DNA from: an uncultured Bacilli bacterium
Lineage (GTDB): Bacteria; Bacillota_I; Bacilli_A; RF39; UBA660
DNA length: 50,031 nucleotides
Assembly (NCBI GenBank): GCA_947630575.1
Contig: CANRIB010000006.1
Coordinates: 1 to 50,031 of the forward strand
Direction of reading: 5' to 3'
Shown here: in pieces, positions 39,501 to 50,031 of the stretch
Layout: each line of letters begins with the position of its first letter
Position numbering within the stretch: position 1 is the first letter of the stretch
Notes under the pieces: generated by a model
The model's input: the letters and a program-made list of their open reading frames with translations, nothing else
What the model was told of the DNA's origin: nothing
The model's database searches: none
Translations under genes and position numbers: made by a program

Positions 39501-42500
39501 ATGCAATTAACCATAATAAAAAAAGATAAATTAAGCATTTTTAATTTGCCAGATGAAATAAAAGGGAGCCATTGGATAACTGACTTTGAAAATGGTCGTA
39601 AAATTAATTTAATAAATATTGAAGCTACTGAAAAAGGTTGGAATATAATTAGTAATCATGATGCTTTTATAGTAGACAATAATGATATTATGGTTCCTTA
39701 TACCATTTTAACAAATTATAATTTCTATCTTTTAAAAAATAATTATAAAAATGAAAAATATTATTTGTATTGCTCACCAGTATATGATGAAACTTATCGT
39801 GAATTAGGAATAGATAATAAAATAATTGTCGGCAGTGATAATTCCTGTGATATTTGTTATAATTTAAATGGTGTTCCTAAAAAAGCTTTTAATATTATGA
39901 AAATAGGTAATTATTATTTTCTTACAATTACCGATAAAAATACCTCCGTATTTGTTAATCAAAAAAGGATATTAAGCAGCAAAAGAATTGAATATGGGGA
40001 TATAATTTTTATTTTTGGTTTAAAAATAATTTTAATGCGCCATGATGGTCGTGATTATCTTTTAGTTAACAATCCTAATAATATGCTTGCTTTTAATGCT
40101 TCATTTGTTAATATTGTTCCAACTCCAAGCGAATTTATTGAAGATAACACTGAATTAACAATTGATTCTATATATGATGAAGACACCTACTTTTATCGTG
40201 CTCCCCATTTTTACAAAACTCTAGACGATTTTAAATTAAATATTGATGTTCCACCATCTAAAAAAGAAGAAGACAAAACTCCAGCCGCCCTAACAATTGG
40301 ACCTATGCTTACAATGGCCATGACTTCTGTAGTAACTTTAATGTCTACTTTAAGCCAAATATCATCTGGTGAAAGAGATATGAGTTCTTCTATAACTTCA
40401 TTAGTTATGTGTGGTGCTATGCTAGCCAGTTGTTTACTATGGCCTTTATTAACTAAAGCTTATCAAAAATTTAGTGCTAAAATGTATGAGAAAAAAAGGC
40501 AAAAATTATATCGCAAATATATAGATAAAAAAGAAAGAGAAATCCAAGAAAGATTAGAAATTCAAAGAAAATCTTTACTTGAAAATAACTTTACAGTTAC
40601 CGATTGTCAAAATGTAATTCGTGGTCATAATGTCAAATTATGGCAAAGAAGAATAACTGATGATGACTTTTTAACTTTACCAGTTGGAATAGGGAATCTT
40701 CCTATGAAAATAGATATTAAATATCCCGAAGAACATTTCAGCTTAACTGAAGATAATCTATTAGATATAGCTCATTCTTTAGGTAAAAAAGAACGTATTT
40801 TAATGGATGTGCCAATTACTTTCTCATTTTTTGAAAATAAAACTAGTGGTATTGTCGGTGATCCTATAACTACCAAAGATTTTATTGATCGCCTTGTTTT
40901 ACAAATGATGGCTAATTATAGTTATGATGAACTAAAAATAGTTACTTTTACATCTATCGATAATGAAAATGATTGGGATTATATTAAAACAATTCCCCAC
41001 AGTTGGTCTAATGATCATGTATTTAGATATTTTGGCTCTTCTAATGAAGATTATCGAGAAATAATATATAATTTAGAAAAAATATATAATGAACGTCAAA
41101 GCACCGAACGCGATAATAGTAAACCTATGCCATATTATGTAATTATCACCGATGCTATTAAATCAATTGACAATTATGATTTTATTAAAAATATGATGGC
41201 GAGTAATAATAACTATGGTTTTAGTATTATCATGTTAGTAGATAAAGTATCAGCTCTACCAAATGAATGCAAAAGTTTTATCAATGTTTCTAAAGAAGAA
41301 TGTTCAATTTATAGCAGTGTTATCAATCTTGATGCTCAAAAATTTAAAATAGATTATTCTCCAATTGATGAAATATACAATTGTGCTCGTGAATTAGCTA
41401 ATATCCCTATTGATATAAAAAGCGAAGTAGAAGCAAGCTTGCCAGATGTATATCAATTTTTAGAAATGTATCAAGTGGGCAAAATAGAACAATTAAATTC
41501 TCAAGATCGTTGGAAAAAAAGTAATCCTATTCTTAGTTTACAAGCTCCCATTGGTATTGGTAAAAGTGGCGAAATAATAACCTTAGATTTACATGAAAAA
41601 TATCATGGACCCCATGGTTTAGTTGCCGGTACGACAGGATCTGGTAAATCTGAATTTATAATTACTTATATTTTATCTTTAGCAGTCAACTATCATCCCT
41701 ATGAAGTTCAAGTAATATTAATTGATTATAAAGGTGGAAGCCTCGCAGGAGCTTTTTGTAGTGATTCTTATGAACTGCCCCATTTAGCAGGAACTATAAC
41801 AAATCTAGATGGTAATGAATTAAATAGATCTCTAGCATCTATTGAAAGCGAAGTTAAAAGAAGACAACAAGAATTTAACGATGCTAGAAAAATTTCTGGC
41901 GAAAGTACCATAGATATTTATAAGTATCAAAAATTATGGCGAGAAGGGCGTCTAAAAGACAAAGAACCAATAGCCCATTTATTTATAATTAGTGATGAGT
42001 TTGCAGAACTTAAAGAACAACAACCAGAATTTATGGACAAATTAATTTCTGTTGCTCGTGTTGGTAGGTCTTTGGGTGTTCACTTAATTCTTGCTACTCA
42101 AAAACCCGGTGGAGTAGTTGATTCTCAAATTTGGTCCAATACTCGTTTTCGTGTCTGTCTTAAAGTTCAAGACACCAGTGATTCTCAAGAAGTACTAAAA
42201 AAACCTGATGCTGCTTATTTAAAGAAAACTGGACGTTTCTTTTTACAAGTAGGCTTTGATGAAGTTTTTACTTTAGGGCAATCTGCTTGGGCTGGCGGCC
42301 AATATTACCCAAATACAACTTTTAAAAAAGATATAGACACATCAATAAATACTATTAATAATATTGGCTTTATTACTACAACTAAAGATATTGAAGTATC
42401 TGAAACAGTTGAATCGCTAGGAGAAGAATTACCTAACATAGTGAAATATTTAAGCGATATAGCCGTCAAAGATAACATTAAAATAAAAAAACTATGGTTA

Positions 42501-44087
42501 GATAAAATACCAGCTAAAATATATATTGATTCCTTAAAAAGCAAATATAATTTTACTCGCACACCATTTATATTAAATCCCATTATTGGTGAGTATGATG
42601 ACCCTGAAAGTCAAAATCAATTTGCCTTAACAGTACCATTATCCAAATTAGGGAGCGCTATTATCTATGGTATCACAGGTGCTGGTAAAGAAGATTTTTT
42701 AACTAGTTTAATTTATTCTTGTATGACTTCATATAGTCCAGAAGAAGTAAATTTTTATATTTTAGATTTTGGTGCTGAAACCCTTCGTGTCTTTGTTAAA
42801 TCTCCTTATGTCGGTGATATAGTGTATATGGGAGAAGAAGATAAACTTATTAATTTATTTAAGATGATTAATAATGAATTAGAAATTAGAAAACAAAAAT
42901 TTGCTGAATATGGTGGTACATATGAAAGCTATATCACAAATACCAAAGAGTATATACCTAATATAGTAGTAATGATTAATAACTATGAAGCATTCTTAGA
43001 AAATTATGAAGATATTTCTGAAGAACTTAATGGTCTTTTAAGAGAAGCTTTTAAATATGGTATTTACTTTATTATTACCGCGAGTAGTGAAAATAATATT
43101 CGCACTAAAACTCGTCAAAATATTTCTTTAATCTATGTCTTAGCTCAAAATAATGAATCTGATTATTCTAGCATCTTAGGTAATATTCGTGGAAAAGTAC
43201 CTGCTAAATATAAAGGCCGTGGTTTATTTAAAAAAGATAATATTTATGAATTTCAAACTGCTTCTGTAAAAGAAGAAAATGTTTATGAATATTTAAGTAA
43301 TTATTGCAAATTAACTCAAGAAAAAATTACATATCGTGCTAAAAGAATACCTGTTCTACCAGAAATTGTAAATTATGACGCTATAATAAGTGACGTTACT
43401 AATACTCCAAACATGGTCATAGGTATCAATAAAAATAAATTAGAAGTAGAAAAATATAACTTTAAGAAAAATGCCATTAATTTAATATGTTCTTATGAAT
43501 TAGAAAGTATGATTACTTTTATAAATGCTTTAATAAATGAAGTAAATTATACCAAAGAATATGAAACATTATTTATAAATACAAGTGAAATAACTATTGA
43601 TAACCATAATTTAAAAGGTAAATTATACACTACTAATTTTGATGATGTTATTAATAGTATGGCAAATTATATCAATCAAGTTTATGATTTATATGAAAAA
43701 AATAATTATAATCTTAATTTAGTAATTAACCAAAAGAAATTTATGATATTTATCTTTGGATTATTTGACTTTATGAATAAGCTAAACGATGAAACCAAGA
43801 ATAAATTAAGTGACATGATTAAAAAAGATAATCAAATAGGTCTTATCTCCTTTGTTCTCGTGGACAATCCAGATGTTATTAAAAATTATGCTTATGATGA
43901 TTGGTTCAAAAATGGTTGTGATACTTCTCGTGGTATCTATATAGGAAGTGGCATTGCGGATCAAAACTTATTTAAAATATCTAAATTTGATCGAGAAGAT
44001 CGTGAAGATATATCTAATGAATATGGTTATTTAATTCAAACATCTAAAATATATCGCATAAAATTATTAGAAAGTTTTGAAGAATAA
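39501..44087 (+). CDS. essC: Type VII secretion FtsK/SpoIIIE ATPase EssC/YukB
   Basis: FHA-like N-terminus, two TMs, 'LWQRR..DDDFL', 'LDLHEK.HGPHGLVAGTTGSGKSE', IDYKGG, DEFAELK, 'GRSLGVHLILATQKP', second domain GITGAGK/LDFG. Confidence 0.95.
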   Translation: MQLTIIKKDKLSIFNLPDEIKGSHWITDFENGRKINLINIEATEKGWNIISNHDAFIVDNNDIMVPYTILTNYNFYLLKNNYKNEKYYLYCSPVYDETYRELGIDNKIIVGSDNSCDICYNLNGVPKKAFNIMKIGNYYFLTITDKNTSVFVNQKRILSSKRIEYGDIIFIFGLKIILMRHDGRDYLLVNNPNNMLAFNASFVNIVPTPSEFIEDNTELTIDSIYDEDTYFYRAPHFYKTLDDFKLNIDVPPSKKEEDKTPAALTIGPMLTMAMTSVVTLMSTLSQISSGERDMSSSITSLVMCGAMLASCLLWPLLTKAYQKFSAKMYEKKRQKLYRKYIDKKEREIQERLEIQRKSLLENNFTVTDCQNVIRGHNVKLWQRRITDDDFLTLPVGIGNLPMKIDIKYPEEHFSLTEDNLLDIAHSLGKKERILMDVPITFSFFENKTSGIVGDPITTKDFIDRLVLQMMANYSYDELKIVTFTSIDNENDWDYIKTIPHSWSNDHVFRYFGSSNEDYREIIYNLEKIYNERQSTERDNSKPMPYYVIITDAIKSIDNYDFIKNMMASNNNYGFSIIMLVDKVSALPNECKSFINVSKEECSIYSSVINLDAQKFKIDYSPIDEIYNCARELANIPIDIKSEVEASLPDVYQFLEMYQVGKIEQLNSQDRWKKSNPILSLQAPIGIGKSGEIITLDLHEKYHGPHGLVAGTTGSGKSEFIITYILSLAVNYHPYEVQVILIDYKGGSLAGAFCSDSYELPHLAGTITNLDGNELNRSLASIESEVKRRQQEFNDARKISGESTIDIYKYQKLWREGRLKDKEPIAHLFIISDEFAELKEQQPEFMDKLISVARVGRSLGVHLILATQKPGGVVDSQIWSNTRFRVCLKVQDTSDSQEVLKKPDAAYLKKTGRFFLQVGFDEVFTLGQSAWAGGQYYPNTTFKKDIDTSINTINNIGFITTTKDIEVSETVESLGEELPNIVKYLSDIAVKDNIKIKKLWLDKIPAKIYIDSLKSKYNFTRTPFILNPIIGEYDDPESQNQFALTVPLSKLGSAIIYGITGAGKEDFLTSLIYSCMTSYSPEEVNFYILDFGAETLRVFVKSPYVGDIVYMGEEDKLINLFKMINNELEIRKQKFAEYGGTYESYITNTKEYIPNIVVMINNYEAFLENYEDISEELNGLLREAFKYGIYFIITASSENNIRTKTRQNISLIYVLAQNNESDYSSILGNIRGKVPAKYKGRGLFKKDNIYEFQTASVKEENVYEYLSNYCKLTQEKITYRAKRIPVLPEIVNYDAIISDVTNTPNMVIGINKNKLEVEKYNFKKNAINLICSYELESMITFINALINEVNYTKEYETLFINTSEITIDNHNLKGKLYTTNFDDVINSMANYINQVYDLYEKNNYNLNLVINQKKFMIFIFGLFDFMNKLNDETKNKLSDMIKKDNQIGLISFVLVDNPDVIKNYAYDDWFKNGCDTSRGIYIGSGIADQNLFKISKFDREDREDISNEYGYLIQTSKIYRIKLLESFEE

Positions 44088-44139
44088 ATTTCTTAAATTC
44101 AACATTTTTCTAAGATATTGTAAAGAAACGTAAATAAAA

Positions 44140-44168
44140 TTGACTAATAAAATAAAGTATGCTATATT
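44140..44168 (+). promoter_or_regulatory. sigmaA promoter of the double-WXG100 gene
   Basis: TTGACT-17-TATATT with extended TG; SD AAGGAGGT downstream. Confidence 0.65.
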
Positions 44169-44222
44169 TATAATATAAAGCATGGTAACATGATATAAGA
44201 TTAAATTTAAAGGAGGTATATT

Positions 44223-44882
44223 ATGTCTGTATTTGCTTATAATCCAGAAGCTGCTAAAAGTTGGGCTAATGGAATTGTTAATTATTTAAATGGAGGAAGT
44301 GAAAGCATAAGTGCTTGTTCTAAAAAGCTTAGTGAACAAATAGAAATATTAGTTCAACCTAATGTTTGGACAGGATCTGCTGCTGCTCAAAATTATCAAA
44401 ATTTTATGGATACTCATAGAGCTTTTATTAAATTTATTAATAGTTTTGGTGATGCTTTTAGAGATTCAATGACCAAAGTTAATAAAGCTGTCGCAGAACT
44501 AGAAATGGCTAATTTAGGTGCTGATACTAATATTGAATCAACATTTGGAACTTTATCATATGATCAAATCGCTGCTTTATCTGAACAAAATATTAATAAA
44601 GCAGAAGTTACTTATGATTATGATAAAATTAGTGAAGTTAGTAGTTCTTTAAAAAGTATTGTGGCTATGGTTGACAGTATTAAAACTAATTTAACAAATA
44701 AAATCAATGAATTAAATAATGGTTCTGGAATGTGGGATGGCACTTCAGCTGAACAAGCTAAAGAAACTTTAAGCTCTATCATAAGTTCAAATATGCAAAA
44801 AATTAACGAACTATTAACTATAGATGTTAAAGAAATATCTGATGCCGCTGCTAGAGCTTCACAAGTAGATAGGGGAGCATAA
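44223..44882 (+). CDS. Tandem double WXG100-domain protein
   Basis: Two ~100-aa helical halves, each with a central WxG (VWTGSAA, MWDGTSA). Confidence 0.8.
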   Translation: MSVFAYNPEAAKSWANGIVNYLNGGSESISACSKKLSEQIEILVQPNVWTGSAAAQNYQNFMDTHRAFIKFINSFGDAFRDSMTKVNKAVAELEMANLGADTNIESTFGTLSYDQIAALSEQNINKAEVTYDYDKISEVSSSLKSIVAMVDSIKTNLTNKINELNNGSGMWDGTSAEQAKETLSSIISSNMQKINELLTIDVKEISDAAARASQVDRGA

Positions 44883-44904
44883 AAAATCACAATTGTGATT
44901 TTTT
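44881..44904 (+). terminator. Terminator after the WXG100 gene
   Basis: AAAAAATCAC-aatt-GTGATTTTTT. Confidence 0.7.
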
Positions 44905-44958
44905 ATAGATAAGAACTAAATGTTATATTTAGTTTTTATCTATGAAAGGAAGATTTAA

Positions 44959-45258
44959 ATGGATATAAGAATAAATACTGATAACATGAAAAATCATATT
45001 AAAGATATAGATTCATATATGAATGATTATCAAATAATTTTATCTAAAATAAAGGGTATTATTGATTCTGGACTTAAAAATGCTATAAAAACAGAGCAAT
45101 TATATCAAAATTTTAATGAAGAAATTCAAGGATTAAGAAGAAGTTTAGAAAGTTTACCAGTTCAAATGCAAACTTGGAAAAAATTTATTGATGGCTACAT
45201 AGAAGCTAGTGAATCATTAGATATTAATTATAATAAACAAAAAATAATCTTAAGATAG
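44959..45258 (+). CDS. Small helical WXG100-like protein without a WxG motif
   Basis: 99 aa, 'IRINTDNM' N-terminus, helix-turn-helix hairpin pattern, T7SS context. Confidence 0.6.
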   Translation: MDIRINTDNMKNHIKDIDSYMNDYQIILSKIKGIIDSGLKNAIKTEQLYQNFNEEIQGLRRSLESLPVQMQTWKKFIDGYIEASESLDINYNKQKIILR

Positions 45259-45268
45259 GAGTAAAATT

Positions 45269-45577
45269 ATGAATTATGAAATTAATATAAATCTACCACT
45301 AGTTGAAGAAGCCAACAACTCATTAAAAGAAGAGTTTACAAATATGCTTACAACCTTAGATAATATTTTACAAGCCTACAATAATCTTCTTAACGATAGT
45401 GAATGGGAAACTGAAACCAAAGAATATTTTCGCCCCATAATTAAAAATTTTAAAGAAAATATCAACATTATAAATACTAAATTTAATGATATAAATACAT
45501 ATTTAACTAATGTAGTAGATAATTATAATCGTCATGAAAAAAATGTTGCAGAAGATATAAAAAACTTAGGAGGTTAA
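45269..45577 (+). CDS. WXG100-like protein
   Basis: 102 aa, central W (SEWET), C-terminal YxxxE (YNRHE). Confidence 0.65.
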   Translation: MNYEININLPLVEEANNSLKEEFTNMLTTLDNILQAYNNLLNDSEWETETKEYFRPIIKNFKENINIINTKFNDINTYLTNVVDNYNRHEKNVAEDIKNLGG

Positions 45578-45578
45578 T

Positions 45579-45971
45579 ATGGCATATAAATATAGTGAAG
45601 TATATAATCCCACTGAATTAAAGAATTTAGCAAATACTCTAATAAGTGAGTTAAATGGTGATTATAATCTTAAAAATTTAAAAGATATTGAAGGAATAAA
45701 AACAAAATCCATAGAAAACAATATTAAAGAAGCTTTAGATAAAATGCAAGTAGGAAAAAATTCTACATTAAGTGGTGATGTAAAGCATTTAAAATTAATG
45801 CTTGAAAATTTAAAATCAGCTTGTACAAGTATTATATCTTATCAATCAAAAGTAAAAGAATTAAAAAAATATCAAGATAACAATAAAGATGGAAAATATG
45901 ATGTAACAATTAAAAATTTAAAAAAATCTATAAATACTTCAGAAACATTAATAGACAATTATTTAAAGTAA
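45579..45971 (+). CDS. Helical hypothetical protein, T7SS-associated
   Basis: 'YNPTELKNLANTL' resembles WXG100 N-termini; AGGAGG SD; 1-nt gap from the previous gene. Confidence 0.6.
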   Translation: MAYKYSEVYNPTELKNLANTLISELNGDYNLKNLKDIEGIKTKSIENNIKEALDKMQVGKNSTLSGDVKHLKLMLENLKSACTSIISYQSKVKELKKYQDNNKDGKYDVTIKNLKKSINTSETLIDNYLK

Positions 45972-45990
45972 TAAGAAATGAGGCATAAAA

Positions 45991-47937
45991 ATGTTTGGAA
46001 AAATCTTATATATAAGTGACAATATTTGTTACATAGAAAATAAAGGCTCAAATGAAATTGGTGGAGATTTATTAAATCTTCATTTAATATTTGAACATGA
46101 AGATCAAAAATTATTAGGAGAAATAGTCGAAATAAGAGATGACCGTATTGAAGTTAGATTTCTAGGTGAATTTATAAATGGCCGTTATAACAATGGTGTC
46201 TTAAGAAAAGCAAGTTTAAATAGTACAATTCGTGTTATTAATACAGAAGAATTATTAGAACTTGTAGGAAAAGAATCTAATAAAAGTTTTGTCTTAGGAA
46301 AAAGTGCCACATATAAAGATTTTAATGTTTGTCCAGATATTAATGATTTATTTGCCAATCATATGTGTATATTTGGTAACTCTGGTTCAGGTAAATCTTG
46401 TGGAGTATCAAGAGTAGTTCAAAATATTTTAAGTAATAAAAATTTTCTCGCATATAATGCTAATTTAATTTTCTTTGACTCTTTTGGTGAATACAAAAAT
46501 GCTTTTAAAAATATAAACGCTATTAACCCATATTACAATTATAAATTTGTTACTTCTCGTATTCGTGATGAAGGCGACGTTCAAATAAATTTACCATTAA
46601 ATCTTTTAAAAGTAGATGATATAGGAATTCTTCTTCAAGCTGATAAACACTCTCAATTAACTATTATAGAAAGAGCTTTAAAATATGCTAAAATATTTGC
46701 CACTGATACCCCAGAAGCTAATCAATACAAAAATCATATTATCGCCAATGCTCTAATAACTATTTTATATAGCCAAAGTACTACTAGACAAAAAAAAGAT
46801 GATATCTTTACTATCATCGATACATGTCATACCAAAGAATTTAATTTTGATTCTGTTATTCCTGGTCTTGGTTATACTCGAAGTTTTAGTGAATGTTTTG
46901 CCATTGATTCTCATGGCCATTTTGGTGAAGAAGTATTAATTACTGAATATATTTTAAAATTCATAGATGAAAATTTAAATGAGATTGAAGAACCTGCTGA
47001 TGCTATCTTTACATTAGGTGGTTTAGCTAAAGCTCTAGATTTCACTTTAATAAGTGAAGGCTTTAATCAAAATAAAAATATGCATGATGATGCTCAATTA
47101 TTAAAGGTAAGATTAAATACTATTTTACATAGCAATATGAAAGAATTTTTTACTGGTACTGAATATGTTACACCTGCCAAATTTATAACTAGATTAGTTA
47201 GTAATAATAACAAAAAATCTCAAATAATTAATATTAATCTTGAAGGATTAGACGATAGTTATGCTAAAGCTTTAGTTAAAATATATTCTCGTATTATTTT
47301 TGACTTTGCTAAAGAAAACGCCAATCGTGCCACAGTTCCTTTTCATTTATTTTTAGAAGAAGCTCATAGATATGTTCAACATGATAATGATGTCTTCTTA
47401 CTTGGATATAACATCTTTGATCGTATTGCTAAAGAAGGTCGTAAATATGGTGTTATTTTAGATATTATTAGTCAAAGACCAGTTGAAATAAGTGATACTG
47501 TTATTGCCCAATGTTCTAACTTTTTAATATTTAAAATGACTCACCCAAAAGATATTAAATATATTGAAGAAATGTTACCAAATATTAGTGCTGATGTTAT
47601 AGAAAAAATGAAAATATTACAACCAGGAACTTGTGTAGCCTTTGGAACAGCTTTTAAAATACCAATGATTTGTAAATTAGAAATGCCAAATCCTCGTCCA
47701 TATTCTGCAAGCTGTGATGTATCATCATATTGGGATTCTAAAAATGATATTAATAAAGACATAAACGATAATGAAACAGGGGAACAAACAAGTCCAACCA
47801 TAAATCAAAATGTAACAATTAGACCTGATGTCATTAATAGTGAAATTAAAAATCAAATTAATATTCCTAATGAAAATCCAAATCCCGAAACTCAAAACAG
47901 ATTTATTAATCCTGAAAACATAAACCCCGTTTCTTAA
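45991..47937 (+). CDS. HerA-like (DUF87) P-loop ATPase with N-terminal beta-barrel
   Basis: H..IFGNSGSGKS, FDSFGEY, LEEAHRY, RIAKEGRKYG, ISQRP.EIS.TV.AQCSN, LQPG.C. Confidence 0.9.
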   Translation: MFGKILYISDNICYIENKGSNEIGGDLLNLHLIFEHEDQKLLGEIVEIRDDRIEVRFLGEFINGRYNNGVLRKASLNSTIRVINTEELLELVGKESNKSFVLGKSATYKDFNVCPDINDLFANHMCIFGNSGSGKSCGVSRVVQNILSNKNFLAYNANLIFFDSFGEYKNAFKNINAINPYYNYKFVTSRIRDEGDVQINLPLNLLKVDDIGILLQADKHSQLTIIERALKYAKIFATDTPEANQYKNHIIANALITILYSQSTTRQKKDDIFTIIDTCHTKEFNFDSVIPGLGYTRSFSECFAIDSHGHFGEEVLITEYILKFIDENLNEIEEPADAIFTLGGLAKALDFTLISEGFNQNKNMHDDAQLLKVRLNTILHSNMKEFFTGTEYVTPAKFITRLVSNNNKKSQIININLEGLDDSYAKALVKIYSRIIFDFAKENANRATVPFHLFLEEAHRYVQHDNDVFLLGYNIFDRIAKEGRKYGVILDIISQRPVEISDTVIAQCSNFLIFKMTHPKDIKYIEEMLPNISADVIEKMKILQPGTCVAFGTAFKIPMICKLEMPNPRPYSASCDVSSYWDSKNDINKDINDNETGEQTSPTINQNVTIRPDVINSEIKNQINIPNENPNPETQNRFINPENINPVS

Positions 47938-47952
47938 ACAAACGAGGTTTTA
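47922..47952. terminator. Bidirectional terminator
   Basis: AAACCCCGTTT...AAACGAGGTTT between convergent genes. Confidence 0.55.
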
Positions 47953-48405
47953 TTTTAAATATTTAGGATTATCAATTCTACCAAGTAAATAATCGGCACT
48001 TATTTTATATTTACAACATATATCATAAAGATAAATAGTATTTATTAAAATTCTTCCTCTTTCATAATCTGATAAAACTGATTGAGTAGTATTTAAAATA
48101 TTTTTTAAATCATTTTGAGTTAATTTTTTTTCTTTTCTTAATTCTCTTAATCTGTTACCTACAATCTTATAATCAATATCTTTCTTAATATTATCATAAC
48201 TTTTTTCATCACTAAAATTAAATATATAATCTAAAGAAACATTAAAATAATTGCATATATTAATTAAATGTTTTAACGGCATAATTGTTTTTTCTCTTTC
48301 AAATTCACTATAAGCAGCATTAGAAATTCCAATAACTTTAACTAATTCAGTCTGCTTAATACCATCATAAGTTCTTATATCTTTAAGTCTATCCTTATAA
48401 ATCAT
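47950..48405 (-). CDS. XRE regulator with two tandem HTH domains
   Basis: 'RLKDIR...IKQ.EL...IS..AYS.FER...N.SLDY' and 'RLRELRKEKKLTQ..L...TQS..S.YERG...ISADYLLG'. Confidence 0.9.
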   Translation of the reverse strand: MIYKDRLKDIRTYDGIKQTELVKVIGISNAAYSEFEREKTIMPLKHLINICNYFNVSLDYIFNFSDEKSYDNIKKDIDYKIVGNRLRELRKEKKLTQNDLKNILNTTQSVLSDYERGRILINTIYLYDICCKYKISADYLLGRIDNPKYLK

Positions 48406-48559: not shown

Positions 48560-49978
48560 ATGGAAAAGAAAAATGGAATTTTAGTTTTAATAATGGTTTT
48601 AATTATAATAAGTGTAGTATTATTAATACCCAAGAATAAAGAATATAAAATAAAAGAAGATAATATTACAAAAGAAGAATATAATACATTATCTATGTTT
48701 ATAGTAGATGGAGAAAAAGAAACTCCAATAGATAAAACACCAGATGCTAGTAAATATGAAATAGATACAAATAAAAGTTATTGTAAAAGAGGAGATCAAG
48801 AATTACGTAATATCCTCACAACCATAAACAATAACTTTGTATTTAAAGAATTACATACCAATGATAAATGTTATTTATGGTTTAATAAAATTACTAATGT
48901 TGGAGATTTAATTATAGATAATTCGACTTATTATGATGGAACAACTCCAAATTTTAGTCAAACTGCATGTGATAGTGGGTGCAACACTACTGATAAAGGA
49001 CTTTATAAAACACAAGACGATGATGGAGATACATATTACTTTAGAGGAAGTGTAACAGATAACTGGGTCAAATTTGCAGGATATTATTGGAGGATTATTC
49101 GAATAAATGGTGATGGAACAATAAGGTTGATATATTCTGGAGATGAAAGTGAAACAAATGTAGATTTCCCAAATAGTAATAAAACTAATCCAGCATATGT
49201 GACAAATACTGGAACTCAAGTAACAATAGATAATTCTAATATTATAGCATTTAATATTAGTCCTAAGCAAAATAGATATGTAGGATATATGTATGGTTCT
49301 ACTAGTGGAGATTATTCTACATCACATAAAAATGATACATCAAGTAATATAAAAACAAAATTGGAAAGTTGGTATTCAACTAATTTAGAGAATAAATCAG
49401 TAGGAAGTAAAAAAGCATCAGATTATATAGATACAGATGCAGGATTTTGTGGAGATAGAACACCATATGATGGATATGGTTCTTCAGCAACTGTAGATTA
49501 TACAAAAGGAGGAACAACAACCACAACATATTATGGAGGGTATTTTAGATTAGCAGTGAATAAACAACCAGATTTACATTGTAAAAGAAAAACAGGAAAT
49601 AATGGAAGTACTACAACATTATCAGAAGATAATGATTTATATACAGTAAGTGGTTCTAAAAAGGGAAATAAAGCAATATCAAAACCAGTAGGGTTAATAA
49701 GTGCAGATGAAGTAAGTTTTGCAGGAGGTAGAACTGGAGCAAATAACCAAGGATATTACTTATATACAGGTCAAACATATTGGACAATGTCTCCGTCTGA
49801 CTTTAGCGGCTGGGCTTGGGTGTTCTATGTGGATACGAGTGGCAAGCTCAGCGACACCTACGCGTACTACTCGTATGGTGTGCGTCCAGTAATAAATCTA
49901 AAAGCTGATACAAAAATAGCATTTCAAAATCCTAATGGAGAAAATAAAGGAACATATCTTAGCTACGGACAGTTTTGA
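48560..49978 (+). CDS. Membrane-anchored surface protein with predicted C-type-lectin-like C-terminus, probable DGR target; last residues derive from an IS end
   Basis: N-terminal TM; 'YYFRG...NWVKF...WRIIRINGDG.IRLIY', 'VGLISADEV', 'YWTMSP...GVRPVINL'. Confidence 0.75.
   Translation: MEKKNGILVLIMVLIIISVVLLIPKNKEYKIKEDNITKEEYNTLSMFIVDGEKETPIDKTPDASKYEIDTNKSYCKRGDQELRNILTTINNNFVFKELHTNDKCYLWFNKITNVGDLIIDNSTYYDGTTPNFSQTACDSGCNTTDKGLYKTQDDDGDTYYFRGSVTDNWVKFAGYYWRIIRINGDGTIRLIYSGDESETNVDFPNSNKTNPAYVTNTGTQVTIDNSNIIAFNISPKQNRYVGYMYGSTSGDYSTSHKNDTSSNIKTKLESWYSTNLENKSVGSKKASDYIDTDAGFCGDRTPYDGYGSSATVDYTKGGTTTTTYYGGYFRLAVNKQPDLHCKRKTGNNGSTTTLSEDNDLYTVSGSKKGNKAISKPVGLISADEVSFAGGRTGANNQGYYLYTGQTYWTMSPSDFSGWAWVFYVDTSGKLSDTYAYYSYGVRPVINLKADTKIAFQNPNGENKGTYLSYGQF
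49781..49890 (+). other. Putative DGR variable region (VR)
   Basis: 60/110 G+C by hand count in an otherwise AT-rich gene; 12 of 36 codons are NNC; lies between WTMSP and GVRP. Confidence 0.7.
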
Positions 49979-50031
49979 ATAAACCCAGTGTTTATAAGGG
50001 ATAAAAGAATAAAAAGTACGACTAGTAAGTG
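49960..50031. mobile_element. Terminus of an IS-like element extending beyond the right window edge
   Basis: TAGCTACGGACAGTTTT, inverted match to 58-74; interrupts the end of the last ORF. Confidence 0.65.

Follow-up and report, generated by a model that had tools for sequence, protein, structure and literature searches.

We report here that a stretch of 50,031 nt from the genome of an uncultured Bacilli bacterium (GTDB lineage Bacteria; Bacillota_I; Bacilli_A; RF39; UBA660), hereafter referred to as “the window”, very probably contains, at positions 49790-49887, the variable region (VR) of a remote chromosomal target of a diversity-generating retroelement (DGR), the product of which would be a membrane-anchored, enlarged C-type-lectin-like protein. 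The window is contig C6 of an assembly of 1,334,683 bp in 62 contigs (GCA_947630575.1), which is 92.3% complete. No natural machinery other than the DGR is known to hypermutate proteins of prokaryotes in a targeted manner, and tools for directed evolution are being derived from it. In the known ones, a single template repeat (TR) is coupled to one reverse transcriptase (RT) and a few targets; the DGR of Bordetella phage BPP-1, for instance, is made up of the VR of mtd, the avd gene, the TR with a spacer RNA, and brt. The original prediction, made from the letters of the window, had already proposed a remote chromosomal target; when a TR and an RT were looked for in the genome, both were present, outside the window, and it is on these TRs, on the cassette encoding Avd and RT, and on a C-type-lectin-like fold that the assignment is based. 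Sequence relationships, the adenine-specific pattern of differences, gene content, RNA covariation and phyletic co-occurrence are demonstrated by the analysis; that the TR units are transcribed, that the RT acts in trans, that the flank has a role, and whether this copy is still rewritten are matters of inference. The features of the target gene to which we refer in the following are:

48560-49978, forward strand: DGR target gene, 472 aa, with a predicted N-terminal membrane anchor and a predicted enlarged C-type-lectin-like ectodomain (open reading frame (ORF) and AlphaFold2 (AF2) model)
48569-48631, forward strand: hydrophobic N-terminal segment, a putative signal anchor or signal peptide (residues GILVLIMVLIIISVVLLIP in the translation)
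49778-49789, forward strand: 5' flank kept among VR genes, TATTGGACAATG, directly upstream of the start of the TR homology
49790-49887, forward strand: VR, 98 nt, homologous to the TR (alignment to the TR of C1:69320-69601)
49877-49887, forward strand: G+C-rich 3' end of the TR/VR homology, GGTGTGCGTCC, likely the GC part of a site resembling the initiation of mutagenic homing (IMH) site
49888-49912, forward strand: VR-specific 3' flank, AGTAATAAATCT..GCTGATAC, kept at the nucleotide level in VR genes; TR units have ATATCC.. instead

The segment had first attracted attention through a jump in G+C (60 of 110 nt at 49781-49890) and through 12 NNC codons out of 36, between the peptides YWTMSP and GVRPV. 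Our recount gave identical figures, both flanking peptides are present as described, and this is the sole such place in the 50 kb. Indeed, the 36 in-frame codons also include 12 NNG codons, so that 24 of them end in G or C, in comparison with 40 (17 of them NNC) of the remaining 407 codons of the same ORF. The G+C counts of all 49,922 windows of 110 nt of the 50-kb stretch have a mean of 29.7, a standard deviation of 6.2 and a maximum of 60, and values of at least 55 are reached only at starts 49763-49799; in a 100-nt profile, the island lies at 0.45-0.51 vs 0.16-0.39 across the rest of the target gene, the G+C of the whole genome being 27.0%. The anomaly in G+C and codon usage far exceeds chance, and the analysis settles that the island is DGR-written sequence, a foreign insert being excluded.

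The BLASTN search with word size 7 against the own genome proposed in the original prediction, run here with 49740-49920, returned 57 places, corresponding to 47 VRs within ORFs, which answers the suggested count of paralogs, and to 10 AAC-rich, non-coding copies of the TR located on other contigs. The conserved 3' domain of the latter led to three further TR units, bringing the total in the genome to 13 (six on C1, two and three in tandem on C13 and C16, respectively, and one each on C2 and C11). All 47 VRs lie at the 3' ends of long ORFs (at least 440 aa for 46 of them; the ORF of the window is intact), flanked by ..TATTGGACAATGTCTCCG and GGTGTGCGCCCAGTAATAAATCT.., and both flanks are strongly conserved. 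Over most of TGGACAATGTCTCCG, each column of the 5' flank is identical in 44-47 of the 47 VR loci, the TRs possessing only its GTCTCCG portion; on the other side, identity amounts to 37-47 of 47 over CCAGTAATAAAT, synonymous third positions included. The sequences would fit an asymmetric 3' boundary (IMH vs IMH*) setting the direction of transfer, with GGTGTGCGCCCAGTAATAAATCT in VRs and GGTGTGCGCCCAATATCC in TRs, and the segment 49888-49912 may be regarded as a candidate IMH discriminator.

The comparison between VRs and TRs reveals the adenine-specific pattern. The VR of the window differs from the best TR (C1:69320-69601) at 15 of the 28 positions aligned with TR adenines, which span 49797-49875, and at 7 of the 70 other bases, with one 3-nt gap (Fisher p 1.1e-5); all the 15 mismatches at adenines fall at codon position 1 or 2. 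The alignments were scored at zero cost for mismatches at adenines and the best of 13 TRs was picked, so the Fisher p-values are optimistic and this has to be counted against our interpretation; on the other hand, 23 of the 47 VR alignments, including three of the six cleanest VRs, are gapless and therefore independent of the scoring. Differences lying almost only at TR adenines, as had been anticipated, are clearly seen in six sibling VRs (1-3 of 71 non-adenine mismatches vs 12-16 of 30 at adenines), while in the VR of the window the expectation holds only in a statistical sense, given its seven non-adenine mismatches and the gap. Among the 47 VRs, p is below 0.01 against the best TR for 37, and a TR of equal length is available for 29. 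When 18 VRs were projected on one TR, the entropy was 1.48 bits at the 30 columns with a TR adenine vs 0.31 at the 71 others (Mann-Whitney p 4.5e-15).

The TR units, about 280 nt long with a TR of about 100 nt, appear to be stand-alone RNA genes, and their transcription is suggested by their sequence. They share the order 5' GGTTAATCT, TR, GGTGTGCGCCCAATATCC, a conserved 3' domain of about 60 nt, a variable hairpin, and a terminator hairpin with a T run; a TATAAT (-10) box, often TGNTATAAT, occurs in eight of the 10 units aligned, and the 5' GGTTAATCT can pair with the 3' AGATTAATC to form a closing helix. The 30 adenines of the TR are distributed over codon positions 1, 2 and 3 as 15, 15 and 0. 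Across 49 distinct TR units from eight genomes, several predicted helices maintain their pairing through double-sided changes: one pair is UA in 41 and CG in 8 and another CG in 40 and UA in 9, neither being unpaired in any of the 49, a third is UA in 26, CG in 14, UG in 8 and CA in 1, and a pair of the closing helix is UA in 39, UG in 6, CG in 3 and CA in 1; the independent changes are fewer than these counts, since related TR units share changes. A search of Rfam with the TR units gave no family, only a sub-threshold match to the S10 leader (E 0.61).

The TR copies themselves differ from each other mainly where the majority base is A, with 44/196 deviations there vs 22/385 at other columns (odds ratio 4.8; 13 units, e.g., C1:69320-69601 and C16:22863-21945), and in an array of a sister species (L124) some TR units retain few adenines. 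Either the templates have been mutagenised themselves, or selection tolerates changes only at adenines; the bias could also mean that the barrier to transfer between VR and TR leaks.

As for the enzyme, Pfam RVT_1 is found at three places in the genome, on contigs C32, C51 and C18. The RT on C32 has 370 aa (PF00078, E 1e-22), and its best PDB sequence match is 8ub7_A (E 3.3e-27), a 328-aa “Reverse transcriptase” which, judging from this length, we take to be the BPP-1 enzyme; the best group II RT scored 9e-14, and none of the NCBIfam models specific for DGR RTs scored. Upstream of the RT gene, and overlapping it, lies a bAvd gene of 117 aa (PF22296, 40.4 bits at a cut-off of 40; NF033474, E 1.4e-9, short of the cut-off of 80 set for this model), preceded by a gene for a 140-aa protein consisting of MutS domain I only (MutS_I, E 1.7e-7), and further upstream by a paralogous target gene. 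A 175-aa ORF without Pfam or NCBIfam match lies directly downstream of the RT on the same strand (L010:738-1265, -) and may be a further accessory gene.

The other two RVT_1 proteins were rejected as a second DGR RT. The C51 protein was identified, at 434.6 bits, as the maturase of a group II intron, and the C18 protein, of 533 aa, has a weak RVT_1 match (29.4 bits) and no NCBIfam match. The latter (L011:607-2208, -) adjoins a Dcm cytosine methylase and may be a defence-type RT.

The original prediction had expected a TR beside an RT/avd gene pair. The pair does exist on C32, and TRs do exist on C1, C2, C11, C13 and C16, but no TR adjoins the RT: no TR-like sequence was found in C32:5901-8320 nor elsewhere on that 12.9-kb contig. 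This counts against our interpretation, in that an action of the RT in trans has to be assumed.

RT orthologs 70-91% identical were found at 31 loci, in records titled uncultured Bacilli, Tenericutes, Mycoplasmatota, Mycoplasma sp. CAG:776 and Candidatus Caccenecus, and the fetched flanks of these 31 loci contained no TR unit; an apparent match to the 3' domain downstream of the RT of L044 was rejected as an AT-rich chance match. In seven more distant relatives, the RTs of which are 44-55% identical, a sequence resembling a TR precedes the RT by 0.4-1 kb, and one of them (L061) has in addition a recognisable version of the 3' domain; the detached TR genes consequently look derived from a canonical TR-plus-spacer RNA. 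Of 18 other genomes of the genus, 13 contain the TR 3' domain, each with 2-24 matches; part of these are organized in tandem arrays with a spacing of about 300 nt (e.g., twelve matches at G015:C20:22682-26085). A search of 12 genomes, drawn from as many other families, did not detect the domain. The RT was detected in 34 of the 43 other genomes examined within the genus. Among the 13 genomes with TR units, a stop-free RT is present in 10; in the five devoid of such units, the search for the RT found none in three and a copy with stops in two. This co-occurrence is supportive and does not amount to a formal test, because the genomes are kin and some are incomplete. RT orthologs with in-frame stops (4 to 23) occur in G008, G011, G031, G038 and G040, of which G008 and G011 are without TR units. 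The pattern suggests a repeated loss of the whole DGR system in sister species.

An explanation without any retroelement might invoke a conserved domain of a paralogous family, shaped by gene conversion and selection, with fast-evolving codons at ligand contacts. The 47 paralogs with conserved flanks are in agreement with it, and some codons for residues involved in binding might have become more variable under positive selection. However, the variable columns coincide with the adenines of non-coding, AAC-rich copies having a promoter and a terminator, the third codon positions of the TR are without adenines, the Avd-RT cassette is present and co-occurs with TR units across species, and selection at the protein level does not explain a block of 55% G+C in a genome of 27% G+C; we consider this explanation very improbable.

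The fold of the target protein also agrees with a DGR target. On the basis of an AF2 model built with 30 homologs (mean pLDDT 76.9, pTM 0.78), the protein is predicted to fold as an enlarged C-type-lectin-like domain with the VR at its C-terminal end. A VIA-align comparison of the model with 48,161 chains gave as top match residues 33-301 of 9qa6_A (Z 11.7, rmsd 3.9, 197 residues aligned), and below it the list consists almost wholly of C-type lectin domains, including the C-terminal domain of Legionella Lcl (8q4e, Z 5.8), the Treponema DGR target TvpA (2y3c, Z 4.9), many CLEC domains (Z 4-4.5) and Mtd (1yu0, Z 3.9). The entry 9qa6 is the N-terminal domain of the Thomasclavelia ramosa IgA peptidase, which its authors describe as built on a C-type-lectin-like core, with large insertions and twice the normal size, no function being known for it (PMC12237041). 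The C-type-lectin fold with a C-terminal VR claimed by the original prediction is thus recovered from the VIA-align result read together with that description. The peptidase domain resembles the target ectodomain as its best structural match, and differs from it in that sequence similarity is undetectable and DGR diversification is not known for it.

Foldseek with the model against the PDB gave no match at E <= 0.001, and a PDB profile search with the 30 homologs gave nothing relevant. A match to Pfam DUF6273 (PF19789), at 22.9 bits, lies just below the gathering cut-off of 23.5 and covers profile positions 81-171 only, which has to be counted against our interpretation; a precomputed PF19789 match is carried by many of the 120 homologs listed. 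The homologs in a large protein collection number at least 7,862 at E <= 1e-10 (8,000 candidates scored). The AF2 model places a helix at residues 4-21 with low confidence, and the topology proposed here for the product of 48560-49978, with an N-terminal anchor, would be that suggested by the hydrophobic segment.

The target gene ends within a repeat, which was found at several contig ends:

49958-50031, forward strand: 74-nt repeat at the contig end, supplying the last six sense codons and the stop codon of the target ORF

The repeat, 74-77 nt long, is 100% identical at the ends of contigs C5, C45, C38, C20, C18 and C11 (seven ends including that of the window). It always lies just downstream of a paralogous target gene, with a varying junction point, which is inside the ORF in the window and on C18; on C5 it is present in about 2.5-3 tandem copies with a period of 139 nt. 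The original prediction spoke of an insertion sequence (IS) at the contig end: a 74-nt repeat is indeed there, but its IS nature is not demonstrated, and no transposase was identified beside the repeat, which is known at contig ends only, the body of the element being unassembled. A mobile-element terminus, a site of recombination and a tandem satellite are all conceivable.

With regard to the state of this particular VR, several observations weigh against our interpretation. Since its last codons and stop come from the contig-end repeat, the 3' end of the target gene may be rearranged or misassembled. The seven non-adenine mismatches to the best TR (49813, 49819, 49835, 49846, 49850, 49863 and 49885) include a C>T change at 49885 inside the G+C-rich 3' homology, where the window has T vs C in all 13 TRs (C is also found in 30 of the 47 VRs). 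The VR is one codon shorter than the best TR: its length class (24, 51), defined as the nucleotides between TCTCCG and GTGTTC and then those onward to GGTGTGCG, is found in none of the 13 TRs and in four of the 47 VRs. No better template was found among 37 TR units of seven sister genomes, the best of them having eight non-adenine mismatches and six gap columns. Finally, the gene is 84-87% identical to its three closest paralogs in the body, 32-39% at the TR-adenine positions and 77-86% at the non-adenine VR positions; because the latter are no more alike than the gene body, there is no sign of recent resetting by a TR.

These observations are those expected if the VR were a fossil, that is, a sequence formerly written by the DGR that is no longer an acceptor and is drifting while keeping much of its TR-derived G+C. 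Besides the seven mismatches out of 70, the difference of one codon in length from every TR of the assembly and the change at 49885, this idea draws on the 3' side of the gene. In about 12 target genes, the stop codon is followed by copies, 84-97% identical, of a ~97-nt element containing a hairpin and a T run (e.g., C32:8320-8224, -; about 18 other places are known); it is absent after the target gene of the window, and the 74-nt repeat is in its place. It draws, moreover, on the continuous series of decay within the VR family, in which G+C goes from 0.58 to 0.33 and non-adenine mismatches from 1 to 31. On the other side, the G+C of this VR (0.56) is still within the range of the freshest copies (0.53-0.58), clearly decayed copies having 0.33-0.45; the ORF remains uninterrupted; three of the seven non-adenine differences occur in other TR copies (TGG in C13:24717, AATACG in C1:7853, and AAC replacing GGC); and a TR of the same length class (24, 51) exists in a sister species (unit L128+1517), with 15 non-adenine mismatches. 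Moreover, a matching TR may simply be missing, since the assembly is incomplete to the extent given above and breaks at these repeats. All things considered, we regard the fossil as a possibility to be taken seriously, though not as the favoured one.

With regard to the VR of a remote DGR target, as we read 49790-49887, the copy of the window may not have been recently rewritten, as no TR of the assembly has its length; probably, either its last rewriting was not recent or the TR used is missing from the assembly. In our estimate, the chances that it is rewritten at present are about even.

Assembled contigs of public runs were also aligned to 48560-50031 (Logan contigs; four runs from one rabbit-gut sample and six, with small shares, from two other studies). 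The bin 49810-49859 was covered 0.28, 0.58, 0 and 0.06, the adjoining bins being deep; one contig identical to the window ends at 49807, and many skip about 70 nt across the VR. Such a dropout fits either hypervariability or the sharing of flanks by 47 paralogs, between which contigs cannot distinguish. No close ortholog of the target gene was found in metagenome contigs (eight loci at 28-34% identity), and the best match among 43 genomes of the genus, at 82% identity, includes the regulator described below and the start of the gene only, and does not cover the whole gene. One might also suppose that reads of several paralogs or strains were joined into a chimeric VR interior, given that the contig-end repeat is common to six other contig ends and that 47 members have near-identical VR flanks. 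Nevertheless, the segment is in frame and stop-free, with a coherent TR-like pattern throughout, so that such an artefact appears highly unlikely; even a chimera would be composed of VR sequence of a DGR, and therefore the class of the feature would not change.

If the VR is that of a DGR target, the following steps might be envisaged. One of the 13 stand-alone TR RNA genes would be transcribed, and the single Avd-RT complex, encoded with the MutS-like gene on C32 and acting in trans, would copy the TR into cDNA, misincorporating opposite adenines. The cDNA would then replace the VR, guided at the 5' end by the common GTCTCCG and at the 3' end by the G+C-rich GGTGTGCGCCC, and the VR-specific flank CAGTAATAAATCT may mark VRs, rather than TRs, as acceptors. 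The rewritten segment would encode the final strands of the lectin-like ectodomain, terminating in GVRPV. A more ambitious model, which we put forward only tentatively, is that of a two-tier, trans-acting DGR, in which an independently transcribed library of templates would feed one TR-less cassette (MutS-like, Avd and RT) rewriting about 47 lectin-like receptor genes, the library being perhaps self-diversified; indeed, the templates may be diversified by the same enzyme, given that they carry adenine-biased differences.

The genes upstream of the target gene are the following:

47950-48405, reverse strand: small regulator, 151 aa, with two HTH_3 (XRE-type) domains, divergent from the target gene (Pfam HTH_3, E 3.2e-21, two stretches)
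39501-44087, forward strand: FtsK/SpoIIIE ATPase, 1528 aa
44223-44882, forward strand: WXG100-domain protein
45269-45577, forward strand: second WXG100 candidate (22.5 bits, under the Pfam cut-off of 27.3)
45991-47937, forward strand: HerA-like DUF87 ATPase, 648 aa

The module formed by the regulator and the start of the target gene was matched in all the 43 other genomes of the genus (E <= 1e-20), and, in a crude tblastn test, a divergent homolog of the regulator lies within 700 nt upstream of 25 of the 47 target genes. The genes at 39501-47937 on the forward strand resemble a type VII (WXG100) secretion cluster.

The system is an unusual DGR variant: the RT cassette has no TR, the TR RNA genes form a family with both dispersed and tandem members, and a genome of 1.33 Mb carries 47 targets. 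It resembles that of phage BPP-1 in the adenine-specific differences between TR and VR, the AAC-type codons of the TR, the C-terminal VR in a C-type-lectin fold, the Avd gene adjoining the RT, the G+C-rich 3' end of the homology followed by a flank that distinguishes VR from TR, and the structured RNA 3' of the TR. Unlike in BPP-1, the TR lies outside the cassette, in 13 separate units on five other contigs, and about 47 genes of the chromosome, instead of one phage gene, would depend, or have once depended, on a single RT cassette.

Cellular DGRs provide further parallels. According to Wu et al. 2018 (PMC5758913), MutS-like (MSL) proteins are a known class of DGR accessory proteins found together with Avd (architecture D), and the highest numbers of targets are eight (Stenotrophomonas) and seven non-adjacent ones (Treponema). 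The present system is similar to those of Treponema denticola (TvpA) and Legionella and to architecture D of that work (PMC5758913) in having chromosomal surface-protein targets remote from the RT and MutS-like and Avd proteins, and differs from the cellular DGRs treated there in its 47 VR-bearing ORFs and in a TR family detached from the RT. Thiohalocapsa sp. PB-PSB1, as portrayed by Doré et al. (PMC10907252), has nine DGR loci with 15 targets, tied to conflict systems, in a large genome; for several of those loci, which are without RT or TR, diversification in trans has been proposed, and the expansion there took place by intragenomic duplication, in likeness to what is seen here. The present genome, unlike that of Thiohalocapsa, has within 1.33 Mb a single RT, 13 TR RNA genes and 47 predicted lectin-like proteins with a membrane anchor. 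Yan et al. mention that certain DGRs with several VRs possess more than one TR, an example combining six VRs with two TRs. In the method as outlined by Roux et al. (PMC8144416), repeats were detected around the candidate RT, and surveys of this kind would undercount systems such as the present one, because they look only near the RT. A search of the literature for DGRs in RF39, CAG-776, UBA660 or Mollicutes and for TR arrays or orphan TRs gave no description, the supplementary tables of surveys, which lay outside the search and might list these RTs, being a limit to this statement.

If the template has indeed become a family of separately transcribed RNA genes used in trans on dozens of genes, the TR RNAs would be modular and portable, compact units of 280 nt with defined ends. 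Furthermore, Bacilli of the gut with small genomes would devote a large share of their coding capacity to variable surface receptors, which bears on the binding of hosts, phages and other cells. A two-tier DGR together with a dedicated small regulator beside many of its targets, if true, would represent a bacterial repertoire system of unusual scale.

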